Below, in pieces: positions 1-33,494 of a DNA stretch of 33,781 nucleotides. The position numbers and the translations under genes were made by a program. A model generated the notes under the pieces. It was not told the DNA's origin. It saw nothing but the letters and a program-made list of their open reading frames with translations, and did not search any database. The first letter of the stretch is position 1, and each line of letters starts with the position of its first letter. Source of the stretch: a virus (Duplodnaviria > Heunggongvirae > Uroviricota > Caudoviricetes); the IMG/VR virus record IMGVR_UViG_640753025_000002; one strand, written 5' to 3'.

Positions 1-1032
1 TCAAAAACTTGCTATTGATGTTGGTAGTGTTGCCAGCGGATTAAACCGTAATGCAGTTTCCAGGTGATCCGGTGCCAGATGTGCGTAACGCATAGTCATT
101 TTTATATCGTGATGCCCGAGAATTTTTTGTAAGGCCAGGATATTTCCACCCGACATCATGAAGTGCGCCGCAAACGTATGGCGCAGAACGTGTGTCAGTT
201 GACCGCGAGGGAGCACGATAGACGTTTTTTCCATCACGGATAAAAATTGAAAATAGCAGTCTGTAAAGAAATTGAACCCATCAAGCGCCATGATCTCTTC
301 GTAAAGCTCTTTACTGATAGGGATGCTTCTGTTTTTCTTCCCCTTCGTTCTTACAAAGGTAATTCGGTATTTGGTCACCTGTGAGCGGGTAAGATTTACG
401 GCTTCACGCCAACGTGCGCCTGTGCTTAAGCATATCTTAACTACCAGTGCCAGAATTGGGTCCTGACGTTTGCAATCAGCCAGCAATTCAACAATCTGCT
501 CATGGGTAAGCCATGCCATCTCTTTTTCTGCGATGGTGAATTTTCGCATGTTCTCCAGTGGGTTCGGATACGACCATTCGCCCAGGCGGGATAGTTCGCT
601 AAAAACACTACTTAGATAGCTTTGCTCCAGGTTAATGGTGACCGGGCTTGCTCCTTTCTTCCATTTCTCGCTGAAGTAGATCTCACCTGTCAGGCGTTTA
701 TCTCGATAGTGGGCAAACATTTTAGATGTGAGATCAGTTGCAAGGGGATTGCCCAGAGCGTCAACCATCAGCAGCAATTTGTCATAGACATGCTGCCCAG
801 CAGTCAGTGATTTACCATGTAGTTTGAACCATAGCTCAACCACGTCTTTCAGTGTTCGACGATCCACTGATTCACCCAGCCAGGGCTTTGCTTCGGTTTC
901 TTCCATCGTGTGACGCTCAAAAGCCAGTGCTTCGCCTTTGGTGGCGAATTGTTTACGCACACGACGCCCACTACGTCCGGCGGGGTAACATTCGCAAAGC
1001 CATTTTCCTGTGGTGAGTTTTCGTACAGCCAT
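1..1032 (-). CDS. int: Tyrosine recombinase / phage integrase (P2 Int family)
   Basis: Translation begins MAVRKL... (P2 Int begins MAIKKL...) and carries C-terminal catalytic motifs (ARWREA, HVLRHTFA, MRYAHL). GGAGG-like RBS precedes the ATG at 1032. The in-frame upstream extension to 1188 in the ORF track is not supported by homology. Confidence 0.9.
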   Translation of the reverse strand: MAVRKLTTGKWLCECYPAGRSGRRVRKQFATKGEALAFERHTMEETEAKPWLGESVDRRTLKDVVELWFKLHGKSLTAGQHVYDKLLLMVDALGNPLATDLTSKMFAHYRDKRLTGEIYFSEKWKKGASPVTINLEQSYLSSVFSELSRLGEWSYPNPLENMRKFTIAEKEMAWLTHEQIVELLADCKRQDPILALVVKICLSTGARWREAVNLTRSQVTKYRITFVRTKGKKNRSIPISKELYEEIMALDGFNFFTDCYFQFLSVMEKTSIVLPRGQLTHVLRHTFAAHFMMSGGNILALQKILGHHDIKMTMRYAHLAPDHLETALRFNPLATLPTSIASF

Positions 1033-1220
1033 AAAAAATGCCCTCCAATAGAGAGCATTTTTACTGTATGTATAACCAGTGTCAATGTATGAAATCCTGC
1101 GACCATACATCTCACTGAAGCCATAATGAAGTAGGCTATTCTTTTTGCTATGTGAGCATGTAACTTTTGCGGTTAACCTGTGGCTCATTTTTATTTTAGG
1201 CGCAGATATAAAAGCAAAAG

Positions 1221-1412
1221 TTATCGTGAGTTTTTAGTACAGATTTTTTTGGATTTACTAATAGTTCCATCATTGCAAACGAATTTGCCATCAGAGGTAC
1301 AGTGAGAAACACCTCCCTTTTTCCCTGAGCAGGGATAATTTCTAGCATAGGTAGCTAGTGGGTTTAATAACAAAGAACATGACAAAACCACAAAAAATAC
1401 CTTACCAAGCAT
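1221..1412 (-). CDS. Small secreted protein (63 aa), N-terminal signal peptide, 4 Cys in mature part; function unknown
   Basis: Strong RBS (GGGAGGAA) 5-6 nt upstream of the ATG; starts 15 bp after the cI stop, same strand as cI and int; AT-rich; hydrophobic N-terminus [23 protein letters not shown] followed by a K/C-rich mature peptide. Confidence 0.5.
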
Positions 1413-1427
1413 AATTTCCTCCCGGTA

Positions 1428-1997
1428 CTATTTAACATACTTGACTGTTAAGCTTATAATTTTACCAATTATTTCAATGTCTTCTATCTTGCATTCGAAG
1501 GCTCTGTTTCCACCCTCGACGAAGATTCTTCCACCGGGTAAACGAGTAATGTCACGGATCGTTATTTCGCCATCAATACTTATTACCCATTTACCATCAC
1601 GTATATCATCAAATTCCTTATCACAAATAAATTCAGAATTATTATCTGTGATTACAAAAAGATTCTTGAATGCCGACGGTAGAAATTCTCTATCGAAAAT
1701 ATAAAAACCGTCTTCACACAAGGCCCCATCAGATAATACATATTTAGCAACTTCCATAGTATTTGTATTACCTGAAGTTTGCTTTGAACCATGCCCGGTT
1801 GTGAGCCAATTAAGCGAGGTGCCTGTTTCAAGGGCGCACTGGATTACCCATTCTGCTGGGAATGAGTCACGCATGTAGCGTGTGGCGAGTGTACTTTTAG
1901 AGATTCCTAAATGATCGCACAACGCCTGTCGAGTCTTGAATCCATAAGCTTCTACCATGCGCTCTATAGCGCCTCGTCCGCCTTTCTCCAAATTCAT
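1428..1997 (-). CDS. cI: CI-type immunity repressor (186 CI-like; N-terminal HTH, C-terminal oligomerisation domain)
   Basis: About 190 aa; conserved pattern AYGF...LS.RY.R...CALETG..L.WL.TG.G typical of 186-type CI; ATG at 1997 preceded by GGAG; divergent from apl/cII. No LexA-like Ser-Lys autocleavage motif seen. Confidence 0.8.
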   Translation of the reverse strand: MNLEKGGRGAIERMVEAYGFKTRQALCDHLGISKSTLATRYMRDSFPAEWVIQCALETGTSLNWLTTGHGSKQTSGNTNTMEVAKYVLSDGALCEDGFYIFDREFLPSAFKNLFVITDNNSEFICDKEFDDIRDGKWVISIDGEITIRDITRLPGGRIFVEGGNRAFECKIEDIEIIGKIISLTVKYVK

Positions 1998-2021
1998 GGT
2001 CACTCCAAGTGAACTTTTATC

Positions 2022-7834: not shown

Positions 7835-7867
7835 GGCGATGTCAATCGGATATCGCCTTGTTTTTTG
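7835..7867 (+). terminator. Putative rho-independent terminator after the SOS module
   Basis: Stem GGCGAT / ATCGCC with an 11-nt loop, followed by TTGTTTTTTG. Confidence 0.5.
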
Positions 7868-7892
7868 TCAAGAAAAGAATAATAGGCTAAAA

Positions 7893-8570
7893 ATGAAAAT
7901 TAATAATGTAGCGTTACCAATATCTCTTGCTGTAATCCTAACTGGTTGCGTGCCACATGCTTCTAACCGAAATATCACTGCTATTGAAGTGGTGAAGCCT
8001 GCTATTGGGCAAAGTGCTACCGCCTACATGGGCGATCCCATTATCACATCTGCTACTGGATTTAAAACGGACGTACTAGAACTTGGTGCGGCTAATGGTG
8101 CATTGTCTTCTATCGCTGCTGGTACATATTGCAGTGAGGGGAATGGAATTTACCGCAATTATCATAACCCTCAAGCTGTTGCGTTAAAAAATCTCTATGG
8201 GCAAATCGGTAACTATGTTGATTATGTTAGTTACGATGCTGCAAAAAATGAGATATCACCGCCAAATGGTACTTCTTATACTGCATCAGAAATTTCTATC
8301 AAACGTGTTCCTGATGGGCTGTGTCGAGTTAGTAACTCATTGGTTAAGACTATCGAATACAATGGAAATGCAGGCGGTGTAATGAAGTTCACCTATCGTG
8401 AATTTGCAAACGATATGGCTCGTGCAGCATTTACAACAGATTTTTCTGTAGATTCTAAGGGAAGTGACGTTATCGCTTACAAAGGTGCCAAGTTCAAAGT
8501 GAACAAGGCTGATAACTCGTCTATTTCTTATACAATTATTTCTGGCTTTGACAAGGCTGTCACGTTCTAG
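7893..8570 (+). CDS. Lipoprotein of unknown function (226 aa)
   Basis: Signal peptide with lipobox LTGC (MKINNVALPISLAVILTGC); AT-rich relative to phage core genes; lies in the variable region between A and cos. The ORF-track start at 7839 runs through the upstream terminator and is rejected. Confidence 0.6.
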   Translation: MKINNVALPISLAVILTGCVPHASNRNITAIEVVKPAIGQSATAYMGDPIITSATGFKTDVLELGAANGALSSIAAGTYCSEGNGIYRNYHNPQAVALKNLYGQIGNYVDYVSYDAAKNEISPPNGTSYTASEISIKRVPDGLCRVSNSLVKTIEYNGNAGGVMKFTYREFANDMARAAFTTDFSVDSKGSDVIAYKGAKFKVNKADNSSISYTIISGFDKAVTF

Positions 8571-8855: not shown

Positions 8856-10247
8856 ATGAACGAAAAACTAACTGAATTAAAAGAGAAACTAGATAATTTA
8901 CATACAACACTTAATGGTCTTGTATTCCCTGTGGAAGATTTTATAAACCTTGGGCCGTACACATTTCCTTTTTTACATAAAGATGATCTGATAGAACTAC
9001 CAAAAATGTTATCTGATAGAATTAATCAGATGCAGGAATTTGTACCATCTTCAGATGACATTGCAGTAATTGATGCGCTCATTTACACTCTGGATCATGC
9101 TCAGCAAAATATTAATCATATAAACAATGGTAACGCATCAGTTCAACAGACCGCTATACCATCTTATGTTATTTCAATGTTATATATCTCTCATAGGATT
9201 AATGACCTTTTTTCATTTGAGAGGCTGAAAGATAGAAATTTATTACCAAAGCAAATTTTACGCAGATTAGAATTATATAATTCAGGTATATCTGCAATTG
9301 CAGCTGAAACTGGTAATATAGAAGAGAAAATTAAAACTATAAATGAAGCATATGATGCAGCCGAGAATCTACCGACAACAGTAAAAATGCTTCGTGAAAC
9401 AAATGATGAAGTTAAAAATGTTTACAATAGCGCAGTTGAGCATTGCAGAAATATTAATGGCATGCTTAAAGAGACTGAAGAGAACTCCAAAATCGTAGAT
9501 GAGGCCAGACAAGAAATTTTGGCGCTGAAACAGAATGCAAGCAAGGATGCAAAAGATTATTTACAATCTCTCCGTGAAGAAGCTCAGGGTTATATTAATA
9601 AATGTGAAGAGGCATTTAGAACTACTACTTCAAAAGGTTTGGCTGGGGCATTTCAAGATAAAGCAGAAAAATTAAACCGGAGCATACGTTGGTGGGTATG
9701 TGGACTAATAGGTGCTTTGGTTGCAGGTGCTGCTGTTGGTTATACGCGTTTACATGCTCTCGAAGCATATCTGTCAAACCCTGACGCATCAGGTATAAAG
9801 TTAGCTATTCAACTTTTACTCTCCATTTTAAGTGTTGGAGCACCATTATGGTTTGCTTGGTTAGCAACGAAACAAATTGGTCAGCGATTCAGATTGGCAG
9901 AGGATTATGAATTCAAGGCCTCAGTATCCAAAGCTTATGAGGGATATAGAAGAGAAGCTGTCCAACTTGATAGCGACTTTACCCAAAGGTTATTTGGTAA
10001 TGCACTTACTCGACTGGAGGAGCCGCCATTAAGATTTGTTGAAGAAGCTACCCATTCATCGCCTATAATGGAAATGTTATCATCGGAAAATTTTAAGCAT
10101 TTCTTAGCTAATGGTGGCGATAAAATCGATTCAATTTTAGAAGGTGCAGGCCTTTCTAGAAAAGGTAAAGTCGAACAAACGCGCCATTTTAATAAGGATG
10201 TGATCCAGCCTGTAAATGAAACTTCAAACAAACCAGAAAATGATTAA
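8856..10247 (+). CDS. Membrane-associated protein of unknown function (463 aa): N-terminal coiled-coil-rich domain plus a two-helix transmembrane hairpin; candidate defence/abortive-infection effector
   Basis: Very AT-rich ORF with an AAGGA RBS; two hydrophobic helices (WWVCGLIGALVAGAAVGY and IKLAIQLLLSILSVGAPLWFAWLA) after about 265 aa of K/E/N-rich helical sequence; no NTPase or nuclease motif recognisable by eye; sits between cos and Q. Confidence 0.7.
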   Translation: MNEKLTELKEKLDNLHTTLNGLVFPVEDFINLGPYTFPFLHKDDLIELPKMLSDRINQMQEFVPSSDDIAVIDALIYTLDHAQQNINHINNGNASVQQTAIPSYVISMLYISHRINDLFSFERLKDRNLLPKQILRRLELYNSGISAIAAETGNIEEKIKTINEAYDAAENLPTTVKMLRETNDEVKNVYNSAVEHCRNINGMLKETEENSKIVDEARQEILALKQNASKDAKDYLQSLREEAQGYINKCEEAFRTTTSKGLAGAFQDKAEKLNRSIRWWVCGLIGALVAGAAVGYTRLHALEAYLSNPDASGIKLAIQLLLSILSVGAPLWFAWLATKQIGQRFRLAEDYEFKASVSKAYEGYRREAVQLDSDFTQRLFGNALTRLEEPPLRFVEEATHSSPIMEMLSSENFKHFLANGGDKIDSILEGAGLSRKGKVEQTRHFNKDVIQPVNETSNKPEND

Positions 10248-31161: not shown

Positions 31162-32847
31162 TTATCCTAATCCTGGCCATACCATGACGATGATTGTCCC
31201 TGCCAGCGTCAGCAGGACGTTGGCGATTGCATAGGTGCCCGCATAGCCCAGCGCCGGGATGTTACTGCGAGCTGTATCACTGATGATCTCCATTGCCGGC
31301 GCGCAGGTACGTGCGCCCATCATTGCGCCGAACAACAGCGCGCGGTTCATTCGCAATACATAAGCACCGAACAAGAAACAGATAACCACGGGCACCAGAC
31401 TGACAATCAATCCGGCAATCAACATCTGACCGCCAATCGCGCCCAGGCCGTTATTAATACCGCTACCGGCGCTCAGACCAACGCCTGCCATAAACACCAT
31501 CAAGCCGAACTCTTTCACCATGCTTAATGCACCCTGCGGAATGTAACCGAAGGTCGGGTGGTTAGCACGCATAAAGCCCAGCATAATTCCGGCGAATAAC
31601 AACCCGGCAGCGTTCCCCATGCCGAAACTGAATGTGCTGAACTGGAAGGTGATCATCCCGATCATCAGCCCAATAACAAAGAAGGCGCAAAATGCCAGCA
31701 GGTCAGTGACCTGGCTGTGAATCGAGATAAAGCCGATGCGATCGGCGATGGTTTTTACGCGACGGGCATCACCGCTGACTTGTAAAACGTCACCTTTGTT
31801 AAGCACGACGTTGTCATCTATCGGCATCTCAATCTGGCTACGAATGACGCGGTTAAGGAAGCAACCGTGATCGGTCAACTTCAGTTGTGCGAGACGTTTA
31901 CCTACAGCGTTATGGTTTTTAACGACCACTTCTTCAGTGACGATACGCATGTCGAGAAGGTCACGATCGAAAACTTCTTTACCGTTACGGAAGCTGGGAT
32001 CGAGTCGGGCATGGGCGTCGGGATAGCCTACCAACGCTATTTCATCGCCCATTTGTAGCACGGCATCACCGTCTGGATTTGCCAGAATCCCGTTACGTCG
32101 AATACGTTCAATGTAGCAGCCGGTTTGTCGATAAATACCCAGTTCACGCAGATTTTTGCCGTCGGTCCAGGCCACCAGCTCCGGGCCGACGCGATAGGCG
32201 CGGATCACCGGTAAATAAACCTTACGGTTGGCATCAGTGTCCAGGCCACGTTCGCGGGCGATTTGCTGGGCGCTGGTCTGTAAGTCCTGATGCTGCAATT
32301 TCGGCAAGTAACGCGCACCAACAATCAAACTCACCAGACCGATTAAATAGGTTAAGGCATACCCGAGGCTCAGATTATCCAGTGCCAGTGAGAGCTGCCT
32401 GCTTTCCATGCCGGAATGACGCAGTGTATCGCCAGCACCGACCAGAACCGGTGTCGACGTCATAGAGCCTGCTAACATACCGGCCGTCAGGCCAATATCC
32501 CAGCCAAACAGCTTACCTAACCCTAAGGCGATCACCAGCGCACTGCCAACCATCACCAGTGCTAACATTAGGTAATTTTTCCCATCGCGAAAAAAAATGG
32601 AAAAAAAGTTCGGTCCGGCTTCAACCCCAACACAGAAAATAAACAGCATAAAGCCAAGATTAAGCGCATCGGTGTTAATGCTGAAATGTTGTTGGCCTAA
32701 TAACAGCGATACGACTAAAACGCCAATGGAATTACCCAGTTGGATCGAACCAAGTCGTAACTTTCCGAGACATAGCCCAAGCGCGAGGACCACAAATAAT
32801 AACAGAATGTAATTCCCATTTAACAATTCGGCGACGTTTATATTCAC
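31162..32847 (-). CDS. ybjL: Putative transport protein YbjL (AAE-family transporter with TrkA-C domains)
   Basis: 561-aa polytopic membrane protein with a duplicated transporter architecture; recognised as E. coli YbjL by sequence, size and neighbourhood with ybjM/grxA. Confidence 0.85.
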
Positions 32848-33116: not shown

Positions 33117-33494
33117 GTGAAACATAAACAACGTTGGGCGGGGGCAATCTGCTGTTTTGTCCTCTTCATTGTGGTGTGCCTTTTTCTGGCGACGCACATG
33201 AAAGGCGCTTTTCGGGCTGCCGGGCATCCTGAAATCGGCTTGCTATTTTTCATTCTTCCTGGAGCAGTCGCCAGCTTCTTTTCACAGCGTAGAGAAGTCC
33301 TGAAACCTCTGTTTGGCGCAATGCTGGCGGCACCCTGTTCGATGCTCATTATGCGGCTGTTTTTTTCACCGACGCGCTCATTCTGGCAAGAGCTGGCATG
33401 GTTATTAAGTGCGGTGTTCTGGTGTGCGCTGGGGGCACTGTGTTTCTTATTTATCAGTAGTTTGTTTAAACCACAGCACAGAAAAAATCAGTAA
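33117..33494 (+). CDS. ybjM: Inner membrane protein YbjM
   Basis: 125-aa hydrophobic protein between ybjL and grxA, matching E. coli K-12 gene order. Confidence 0.75.
   Translation: MKHKQRWAGAICCFVLFIVVCLFLATHMKGAFRAAGHPEIGLLFFILPGAVASFFSQRREVLKPLFGAMLAAPCSMLIMRLFFSPTRSFWQELAWLLSAVFWCALGALCFLFISSLFKPQHRKNQ

Follow-up and report, generated by a model that had tools for sequence, protein, structure and literature searches.

Layout of the cI-int interval

The window analysed here, which is the whole 33,781-nucleotide (nt) stretch of IMG/VR record IMGVR_UViG_640753025_000002, is a 186/P2-like prophage that begins at the stop codon of its integrase gene (int). Between the repressor gene (cI) and the gene for the integrase lies an open reading frame (ORF) of 63 codons, which an earlier note on this DNA had described as a small secreted peptide inserted into the lysogenic operon. 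Almost certainly, this ORF is a genuine protein-coding gene that belongs to the YdcA family and that a 186-like prophage carries as an accessory, or 'moron'. The order of genes on the minus strand (cI, then the ORF, then int) was read directly from the sequence, and was the same in the ORF listing and in the RefSeq annotation. The features of the locus, including the Shine-Dalgarno sequence (SD) of the ORF, are as follows.

1428..2003, minus strand: 186-type CI repressor gene (RefSeq start 1997, TAG at 1430-1428), matching PF07022 (E = 3e-33) and PF16452 (E = 3e-27)
1413..1427, minus strand: intergenic region of 15 nt between cI and the ORF, sequence TACCGGGAGGAAATT, which holds the SD GGGAGGAA
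1423-1416, minus strand: SD GGGAGGAA, with a spacing of 5 nt from GGAGG to the ATG
1412 to 1221, minus strand: YdcA-family coding sequence, 63 codons plus stop (ATG 1412-1410, stop 1223-1221), RefSeq WP_001513672.1
1344..1412, minus strand: signal peptide, codons 1-23, with a predicted signal peptidase I cut after T-Y-A, from the n/h/c organisation and the family alignment
1224..1343, minus strand: mature basic peptide of 40 amino acids with cysteines C28, C38, C46 and C58, from a 26-member family alignment
1033..1220, minus strand: spacer of 188 nt from the ORF stop to the int start, holding a promoter-like site and, with the int SD inside it, a terminator-like hairpin
1..1032, minus strand: tyrosine integrase gene (343 amino acids), recognised by PF24624, PF00589, phrog_1 and the RefSeq annotation

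Direct reading bore out the ORF itself, its ribosome-binding site, its distance of 15 nt from the cI stop and its position on the same strand, all as previously described. The comparison that had been drawn with phage 186 was likewise correct; there, cI and int have a single nucleotide in common and form one lysogenic operon. The supposed insert fared less well. Its size had been given as 230 bp, and the interval from the cI stop to the int start (1032) actually measures 395 bp (15 + 192 + 188). Nor does its AT-richness delimit it: a G+C content of about 35% is not limited to the ORF, and the low tract carries on across the 3' half of cI as far as about position 1800. Composition alone therefore cannot mark an insert, and low G+C was rejected as a sign of one.

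A promoter scan predicted zero promoter-like or terminator-like sites within the interval between cI and the ORF. On the plus strand, antisense to cI, a sigma-70 promoter-like site (TTAACA-17-TATAAT, 11/12; 1432-1460) was noted at the cI/ORF junction; since its -35 element is changed in the E. coli B allele, and thus not conserved, it was set aside as probably a chance match.

Family membership and selection

The translated ORF scored 114.6 bits (E = 1e-33) with the NCBIfam equivalog model NF007463 (PRK10040.1-2), for which the cutoff is 93, and the match spanned residues 5-63 of the protein and positions 1-58 of the 58 in the model. With the equivalog NF007462 (PRK10040.1-1), whose 57 residues correspond to the length of chromosomal YdcA, the score was 68.5 bits, which is under the cutoff of 118. 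A match to phrog_6000 was also obtained (E = 3e-34), while PF27300 is precomputed on an identical protein (P0001) and on nearly all homologs, and the recent RefSeq annotation of WP_001513672.1 reads 'YdcA family protein'. What had been treated as an anonymous small peptide thus belongs, through NF007463, PF27300 and phrog_6000, to a named, uncharacterised family. When the ORF was scanned with a Pfam model set that does not include PF27300, the sole match was a spurious, sub-threshold one (GULLO2-like, E = 0.076). The UniRef name 'Conjugal transfer protein', attached to the identical protein, was taken as an automated label and was not used as evidence.

YdcA of E. coli is a predicted periplasmic protein of 57 amino acids with no described function, and its gene adjoins rydC/cybB (PMC11340327). 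Deletion of ydcA renders E. coli W sensitive to 300 mM 3-hydroxypropionate, and ydcA has been reported to be acid-induced through YdcI (PMC7642389). Like the ORF product, YdcA (b1419) has a Sec signal peptide and, after it, a basic core of roughly 35 amino acids with four invariant cysteines; the ORF differs in representing a second subfamily, which is prophage-borne and placed behind cI. Nothing relevant to the prophage copy was found in the literature on the YdcA family, its models and its motif.

Selection and spacing were assessed by comparison with five diverged E. coli alleles. The ratio of nonsynonymous to synonymous divergence (dN/dS) was 0.04-0.09 at dS values of 0.31-0.49, and in the part encoding the mature peptide there were 8-11 synonymous changes against 1-3 nonsynonymous changes. 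The gap of 15 nt between cI and the ORF was the same length in all five alleles; three alleles had GGGAGGAA as their SD core and two (L167 and L169) had TGGAGGAA, with GGAGGAA invariant throughout. Divergence at cI and at the ORF did not run in parallel: E. coli B (L165) showed a dS of 0.07 for cI and 0.31 for the ORF, and CE10 (L168) showed a dS of 0.56 for cI and 0.02 for the ORF. The cI and YdcA-like alleles shuffle independently, which implies that recombination has broken the sequence in or close to the junction of 15 nt.

An exhaustive profile search recovered 459 cluster representatives at E <= 1e-3, some of them with two or three tandem domains, and homologs with invariant cysteines were found in their hundreds across the Proteobacteria. 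Among 5426 complete E. coli genomes, this type of cI was present in 647 and the ORF (at nucleotide identity of at least 90%) in approximately 631; carriers of the ORF include the reference commensal HS, the laboratory E. coli B strain C2566 and ATCC 8739, and BL21 has the matching cI. When IMG/VR was scanned with the family alignment, relatives were encoded, among the matches listed, in 534 of 600 viral-contig candidates. The 80 loci returned by that scan were all copies of 98-100% identity, and so were uninformative on diversity.

Signal peptide and mature peptide

The signal peptide was called by rule. It has an n-region (MLGK), an h-region with a mean Kyte-Doolittle value of 2.86 and a c-region (NPLATYA), and the cleavage site is preceded in all 26 aligned family members by alanine at position -1 and by A, S, T or V at position -3. 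Pairwise identity among these members was 23% for the signal region versus 78% for the mature core. The predicted mature peptide (40 amino acids, 4.3 kDa, isoelectric point 9.7, net charge of about +7) contains four cysteines, while a fifth (C12) falls inside the signal peptide. Both the core, PCSGKKGG..C..FxCxDG..SxSK..C, and its four cysteines were invariant in the alignment, the complete set of invariant residues being P27, C28, S29, K32, G33, G34, C38, F44, C46, D48, G49, S52, S54, K55 and C58. The n/h/c features and the family alignment therefore agree with the signal peptide and lysine-rich, four-cysteine mature peptide of the initial description.

Placement behind phage repressors

The neighbourhoods of 80 family loci, one per species, were surveyed, and repressors were the only neighbours to recur across taxa. 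A 186-type cI was situated directly upstream on the same strand in seven loci, from Escherichia, Buttiauxella, Atlantibacter and three Yersinia species with an HP2-type integrase. Five more loci (Iodobacter, Deefgea, Hydrogenophilales and two Comamonas) had a second, unrelated repressor cluster upstream; two of its members were tested by Pfam, with HTH_3 and Peptidase_S24 domains found in that of Comamonas (L140) and HTH_3 only in that of Iodobacter (L092). The same order, repressor followed by YdcA on one strand, was also observed in Comamonas avium (L093) and Oceanisphaera (L101). P2-like genes occurred within 5 kb in 23 of the 80 loci, and no phage genes occurred within that distance in 57.

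In the Haemophilus phages HP2 and S2, an unannotated homolog of 60 amino acids has an ATG that overlaps the cI stop, taking that codon's last base as its first, and is followed by orf1(S) and then by int. Homologs are also present as morons in phages of Moraxella, Acinetobacter and Pseudomonas. Conservation at the cI-int junction of related prophages, which the earlier note had named as a matter for checking, was accordingly found, together with repressor-linked homologs across taxa.

Other P2-like prophages have neighbouring ORFs on the same strand with hydrophobic, signal-like or lipobox-like N-termini (L087 4588-4989; L140 4489-4989; L093 4255-5007; L101 5202-6200). These are mostly found between the repressor and the YdcA-like gene, with that in L101 lying just downstream. 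Such arrangements suggest that cargo directed at the envelope is common in the repressor operon.

The cI-int interval as a cargo slot

The cI-int interval is a cargo slot already known in the literature. A hotspot in this position has been described for K139-like phages (PMC9122126), and 8% of the defence systems of P2 are found in an integrase-primase hotspot (PMC13586616). The slot contains a gene of 349 amino acids in Klebsiella phage 4LV2017 and orf1-4 in HP1, while the order in K139 is PL-cI-orf2-glo-int. Two sister prophages, in E. coli JA0072 and FDAARGOS_433 (L167 142-1473 and L169 1-1288), have a KAP-family P-loop NTPase of 443 amino acids between the YdcA-like gene and int, which matches the PADLOC defence candidate PDC-S20 at 2e-171. 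In relation to P2-like defence hotspots, the YdcA-like gene is the constant element beside cI, whereas the other cargo varies downstream of it. The ORF is not a new kind of element: its family is annotated, and the slot that it occupies is known to take cargo.

One occupant of this slot, Glo of K139, is a soluble periplasmic protein that is expressed in lysogens (PMC3952083) and involved in exclusion (Nesper et al. 1999, cited through PMC3952083). Glo resembles the ORF in belonging to a P2-family phage, in its position within the cI-int slot of the lysogenic operon, and in the periplasmic location of its product, which for the ORF is predicted. However, Glo is larger than the ORF product, at 137 amino acids, and the documented exclusion activity is that of Glo. 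No homology was detected between the two by BLASTP (E = 0.17, 7/30 identities).

The spacer before int

Within the 188-nt spacer, the promoter scan identified a promoter-like site, TTGACA-17-AAAAAT, on the minus strand from 1085 to 1057. Its -10 element falls within the 5' arm of a hairpin, AAAAAUGCUCUCU-AUU-GGAGGGCAUUUUU (1062-1034), in which an A-run, a GC stem and a U-run stand just ahead of the int AUG, and which contains the int SD. The RNA between ORF and int had a more stable fold than 200 of 200 shuffled sequences (z = -4.64). This promoter/hairpin element is kept in E. coli variants and is part of an int module common to Klebsiella phages, with homology reaching position 1090 of the window.

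The lysogenic-operon placement proposed in the earlier note was consequently sustained in part. The ORF belongs to the repressor unit, with no promoter or terminator predicted before it, but it is uncertain whether it shares a transcript with int, since a terminator-like hairpin and a separate promoter-like site stand just upstream of that gene. Judging by these signals, read-through from cI-YdcA into int may be attenuated, in which case efficient expression in lysogens may end with the YdcA-like gene; the arrangement also suggests that transcripts from int's own promoter would be translatable. A long stem just 3' of the ORF stop (AACUUUUGC...GCAAAAGUU) was also considered. Substitutions in E. 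coli B break its pairs and none compensate, and no structure is claimed for it.

Nuclease coupling and the Dis2 relationship

Among the 20 longer family representatives that were inspected, six had the YdcA domain fused to a nuclease (Endonuclease_NS in four, SNase in one and a PLD-like domain in one), while one more was fused to VasL of the type VI secretion system (T6SS). In all of these fusion proteins (P0159, P0132, P0211, P0171, P0094, P0148 and P0098) the YdcA domain is N-terminal. Coupling was also seen between adjacent genes. A gene for an exported SNase begins 7 nt after the YdcA stop in three Brucella/Ochrobactrum species (L094/L097/L099 5179-5670), and 41 nt after it in one metagenome-assembled genome (L154 5213-5902). 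Since the three unrelated nuclease folds have only their substrate in common, and since the peptide is strongly basic, these couplings point to an extracytoplasmic module that binds DNA, or that tethers partners.

The only solved relative of the ORF product is Dis2 of Legionella pneumophila (Lpg0823; PDB 7MUC/7MUD), to which the homology is remote. It came out as the best PDB match, at E = 3.2e-5 with the full sequence (phmmer), at 1.2e-4 with the family profile, and at 2.2e-4 with the mature part only, in which search the next match came at 0.069. Both lobes of Dis2 align, with the common motif C-S-K-x-GG-[IV]-x-x-C ... G-[KR]-[FL]-V-C-N-[DN]-G, and Foldseek also placed Dis2 first, the query model having a predicted local distance difference test (pLDDT) value of 73. 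In the Dot/Icm outer-membrane cap, Dis2 is a component with two lobes pinned by disulfides; it is situated near the outer membrane, and those who described it found neither structural relatives nor a function for it (PMC8486379). Like the ORF product it is rich in cysteine and exported (as predicted for the ORF), but it has two lobes, five disulfides and membership of a secretion machine, whereas the ORF product has one lobe and four cysteines and is prophage-borne. Tandem relatives with two and three lobes occur elsewhere in the family. No genes of a type IV secretion system (T4SS) were found in the window, that is, in the prophage or the host ybjL/ybjM region.

Other features of the window

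Two cargo ORFs on the plus strand occupy the classical gpA-gpQ hotspot, at 7839-8570 (243 amino acids) and 8856-10247 (463 amino acids). Neither had a confident match in Pfam or PADLOC, where only weak DUF4126 and JetC-like matches were seen, and the two are candidates for an unrecognised defence system. Towards the right of the window there is a ybjL-like Asp-Al_Ex/TrkA_C transporter gene (31162-32847, minus strand), followed by that for YbjM (33117-33494, plus strand). The presence of ybjL/ybjM at 31.1-33.5 kb indicates host chromosome, which puts the right end of the prophage at approximately 30.7-31.1 kb and means that the window is not purely phage. A segment identical to that of the window is present in E. 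coli HS, where it adjoins rcdA/ybjJ.

Proposed function and alternative explanations

Given a genuine gene for an exported protein within the repressor unit, and in a slot used for accessory genes, cargo for lysogenic conversion is a reasonable reading of the ORF. Very probably, on the evidence of the sequence, the ORF lies on the cI transcript that comes from the lysogenic promoter, and a strong SD of its own drives its translation; the precursor would then be exported by Sec and cleaved after Ala23, leaving in the periplasm a basic peptide of 40 amino acids with two disulfides.

The role of this peptide is put forward more tentatively. By association, and at somewhat less than an even chance, the YdcA domain may be a small extracytoplasmic module with a binding function, which assists the lysogen in keeping out foreign DNA or phage. 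Its ligand would most likely be DNA, or some other polyanion, on the inner side of the outer membrane; as an alternative to DNA binding, the module might tether partners near the outer membrane. In a lysogen, the periplasmic peptide would hinder superinfecting phage, and possibly the entry of conjugative or transforming DNA, and so would act as a lysogenic-conversion factor of the exclusion type, comparable to K139 Glo in its position and its compartment. The explanation as a whole, in which a selected YdcA-family gene is co-expressed and its product exported as a periplasmic module that excludes DNA or phage, is the best of those considered and comes close to an even chance.

Several points weigh against an exclusion role. 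Phage DNA normally crosses the periplasm within a conduit, so that a soluble protein that binds DNA may have no access to it. Neither the ORF nor its HP2 homolog had a match in PADLOC-DB v2 at E <= 1, and the confidence of the structural model is moderate (pLDDT 73). The nuclease fusions are equally compatible with a role in anchoring or localisation. Furthermore, the conserved chromosomal paralogs suggest a housekeeping role in the envelope, and the sole phenotypes on record for the family are the 3-hydroxypropionate sensitivity and acid induction of ydcA (PMC7642389).

Those phenotypes lead to the first alternative, which is possible but doubtful: that the prophage copy does the work of chromosomal YdcA as an envelope-fitness factor, in a role linked to tolerance of acid or organic acids and of direct benefit to the lysogen, and leaves incoming phage or DNA unaffected. 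Prophage and chromosomal proteins are very much alike in their mature cores, and the 57 of 80 family loci without phage genes within 5 kb are also consistent with this. However, the case derives from one study and one phenotype with no mechanism, and a second copy would be of little gain to a host that already bears ydcA. It also leaves unexplained both the repeated nuclease fusions and operons, and the recurrence of the gene behind two unrelated types of repressor.

The relationship with Dis2 raises the prospect of a structural accessory, a disulfide-stabilised subunit that docks on and modulates an outer-membrane machine of host or phage, such as a secretin, T4SS, pilus or injection complex. 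Dis2 is indeed stoichiometric in the Dot/Icm outer-membrane cap, with 13 copies, and one family member is fused to T6SS VasL. Yet the window has no T4SS or T6SS genes, no machine genes recur beside family members, and the homology is remote, with two lobes and five disulfides in Dis2 as opposed to one lobe here. Such a role was considered improbable.

Less credible again is a secreted toxin, or a bacteriocin-like cationic antimicrobial peptide directed at competitors. The toxin-like reading had been entertained in the earlier note, and a small, cationic, cysteine-stabilised product that is predicted to be exported would be in keeping with it, as would a weak, sub-threshold likeness to plant Pin-II proteinase inhibitors (E 0.07-1). 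It found no support, since it has no adjoining gene for immunity, for a dedicated exporter or for release through the outer membrane, and the family includes ydcA, a conserved chromosomal gene of E. coli; in addition, a Sec signal reaches only the periplasm, and the inhibitor matches are not significant.

It is very improbable that the product is a lipid-anchored lipoprotein with Cys12, in V-L-S-C, as its lipobox cysteine. VVLSC does fit the loose PROSITE lipobox pattern, and one homolog bears the UniRef name 'Lipoprotein', but Cys12 is only 12 residues from the start, too near the N-terminus for a normal lipoprotein signal, and in most members it is missing or preceded by F, I or V, whereas the A-x-A type of site is invariant. 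Lastly, a spurious ORF in an AT-rich spacer, to which the short length and low local G+C might point, can be dismissed with near certainty in view of the family matches (E~1e-33), the dN/dS of 0.04-0.09, the retention of SD core and spacing, and the homologs with invariant cysteines.

Significance

The leads that are new here are the repressor-linked placement across phage lineages, the homology to Dis2 and the coupling to nucleases. Through them, one testable hypothesis concerning a periplasmic module of 40 residues joins ydcA, the orphan Dis2 and the exported nucleases. In its widest form, which was judged rather unlikely, YdcA mini-proteins would constitute a widespread, unrecognised class of single-gene periplasmic proteins that bind DNA, or the entry machinery on the inner side of the outer membrane; temperate phages would set them right behind the repressor gene, so that each lysogen would bar superinfecting phage and conjugative or transforming DNA, and the module would also serve as an anchoring or substrate module for nucleases and as the Dis2 subunit.

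The gene is present in approximately one of every nine complete E. coli genomes, in an operon that is on in every lysogen, and this abundance makes experimental testing easy. Were the product a stress-tolerance factor only, the gene would be an ordinary moron. If instead it is a factor in exclusion or DNA entry, it would be a very small, single-gene addition to the defence repertoire of prophages, and this would explain its retention beside the repressor across distant P2-like phages.
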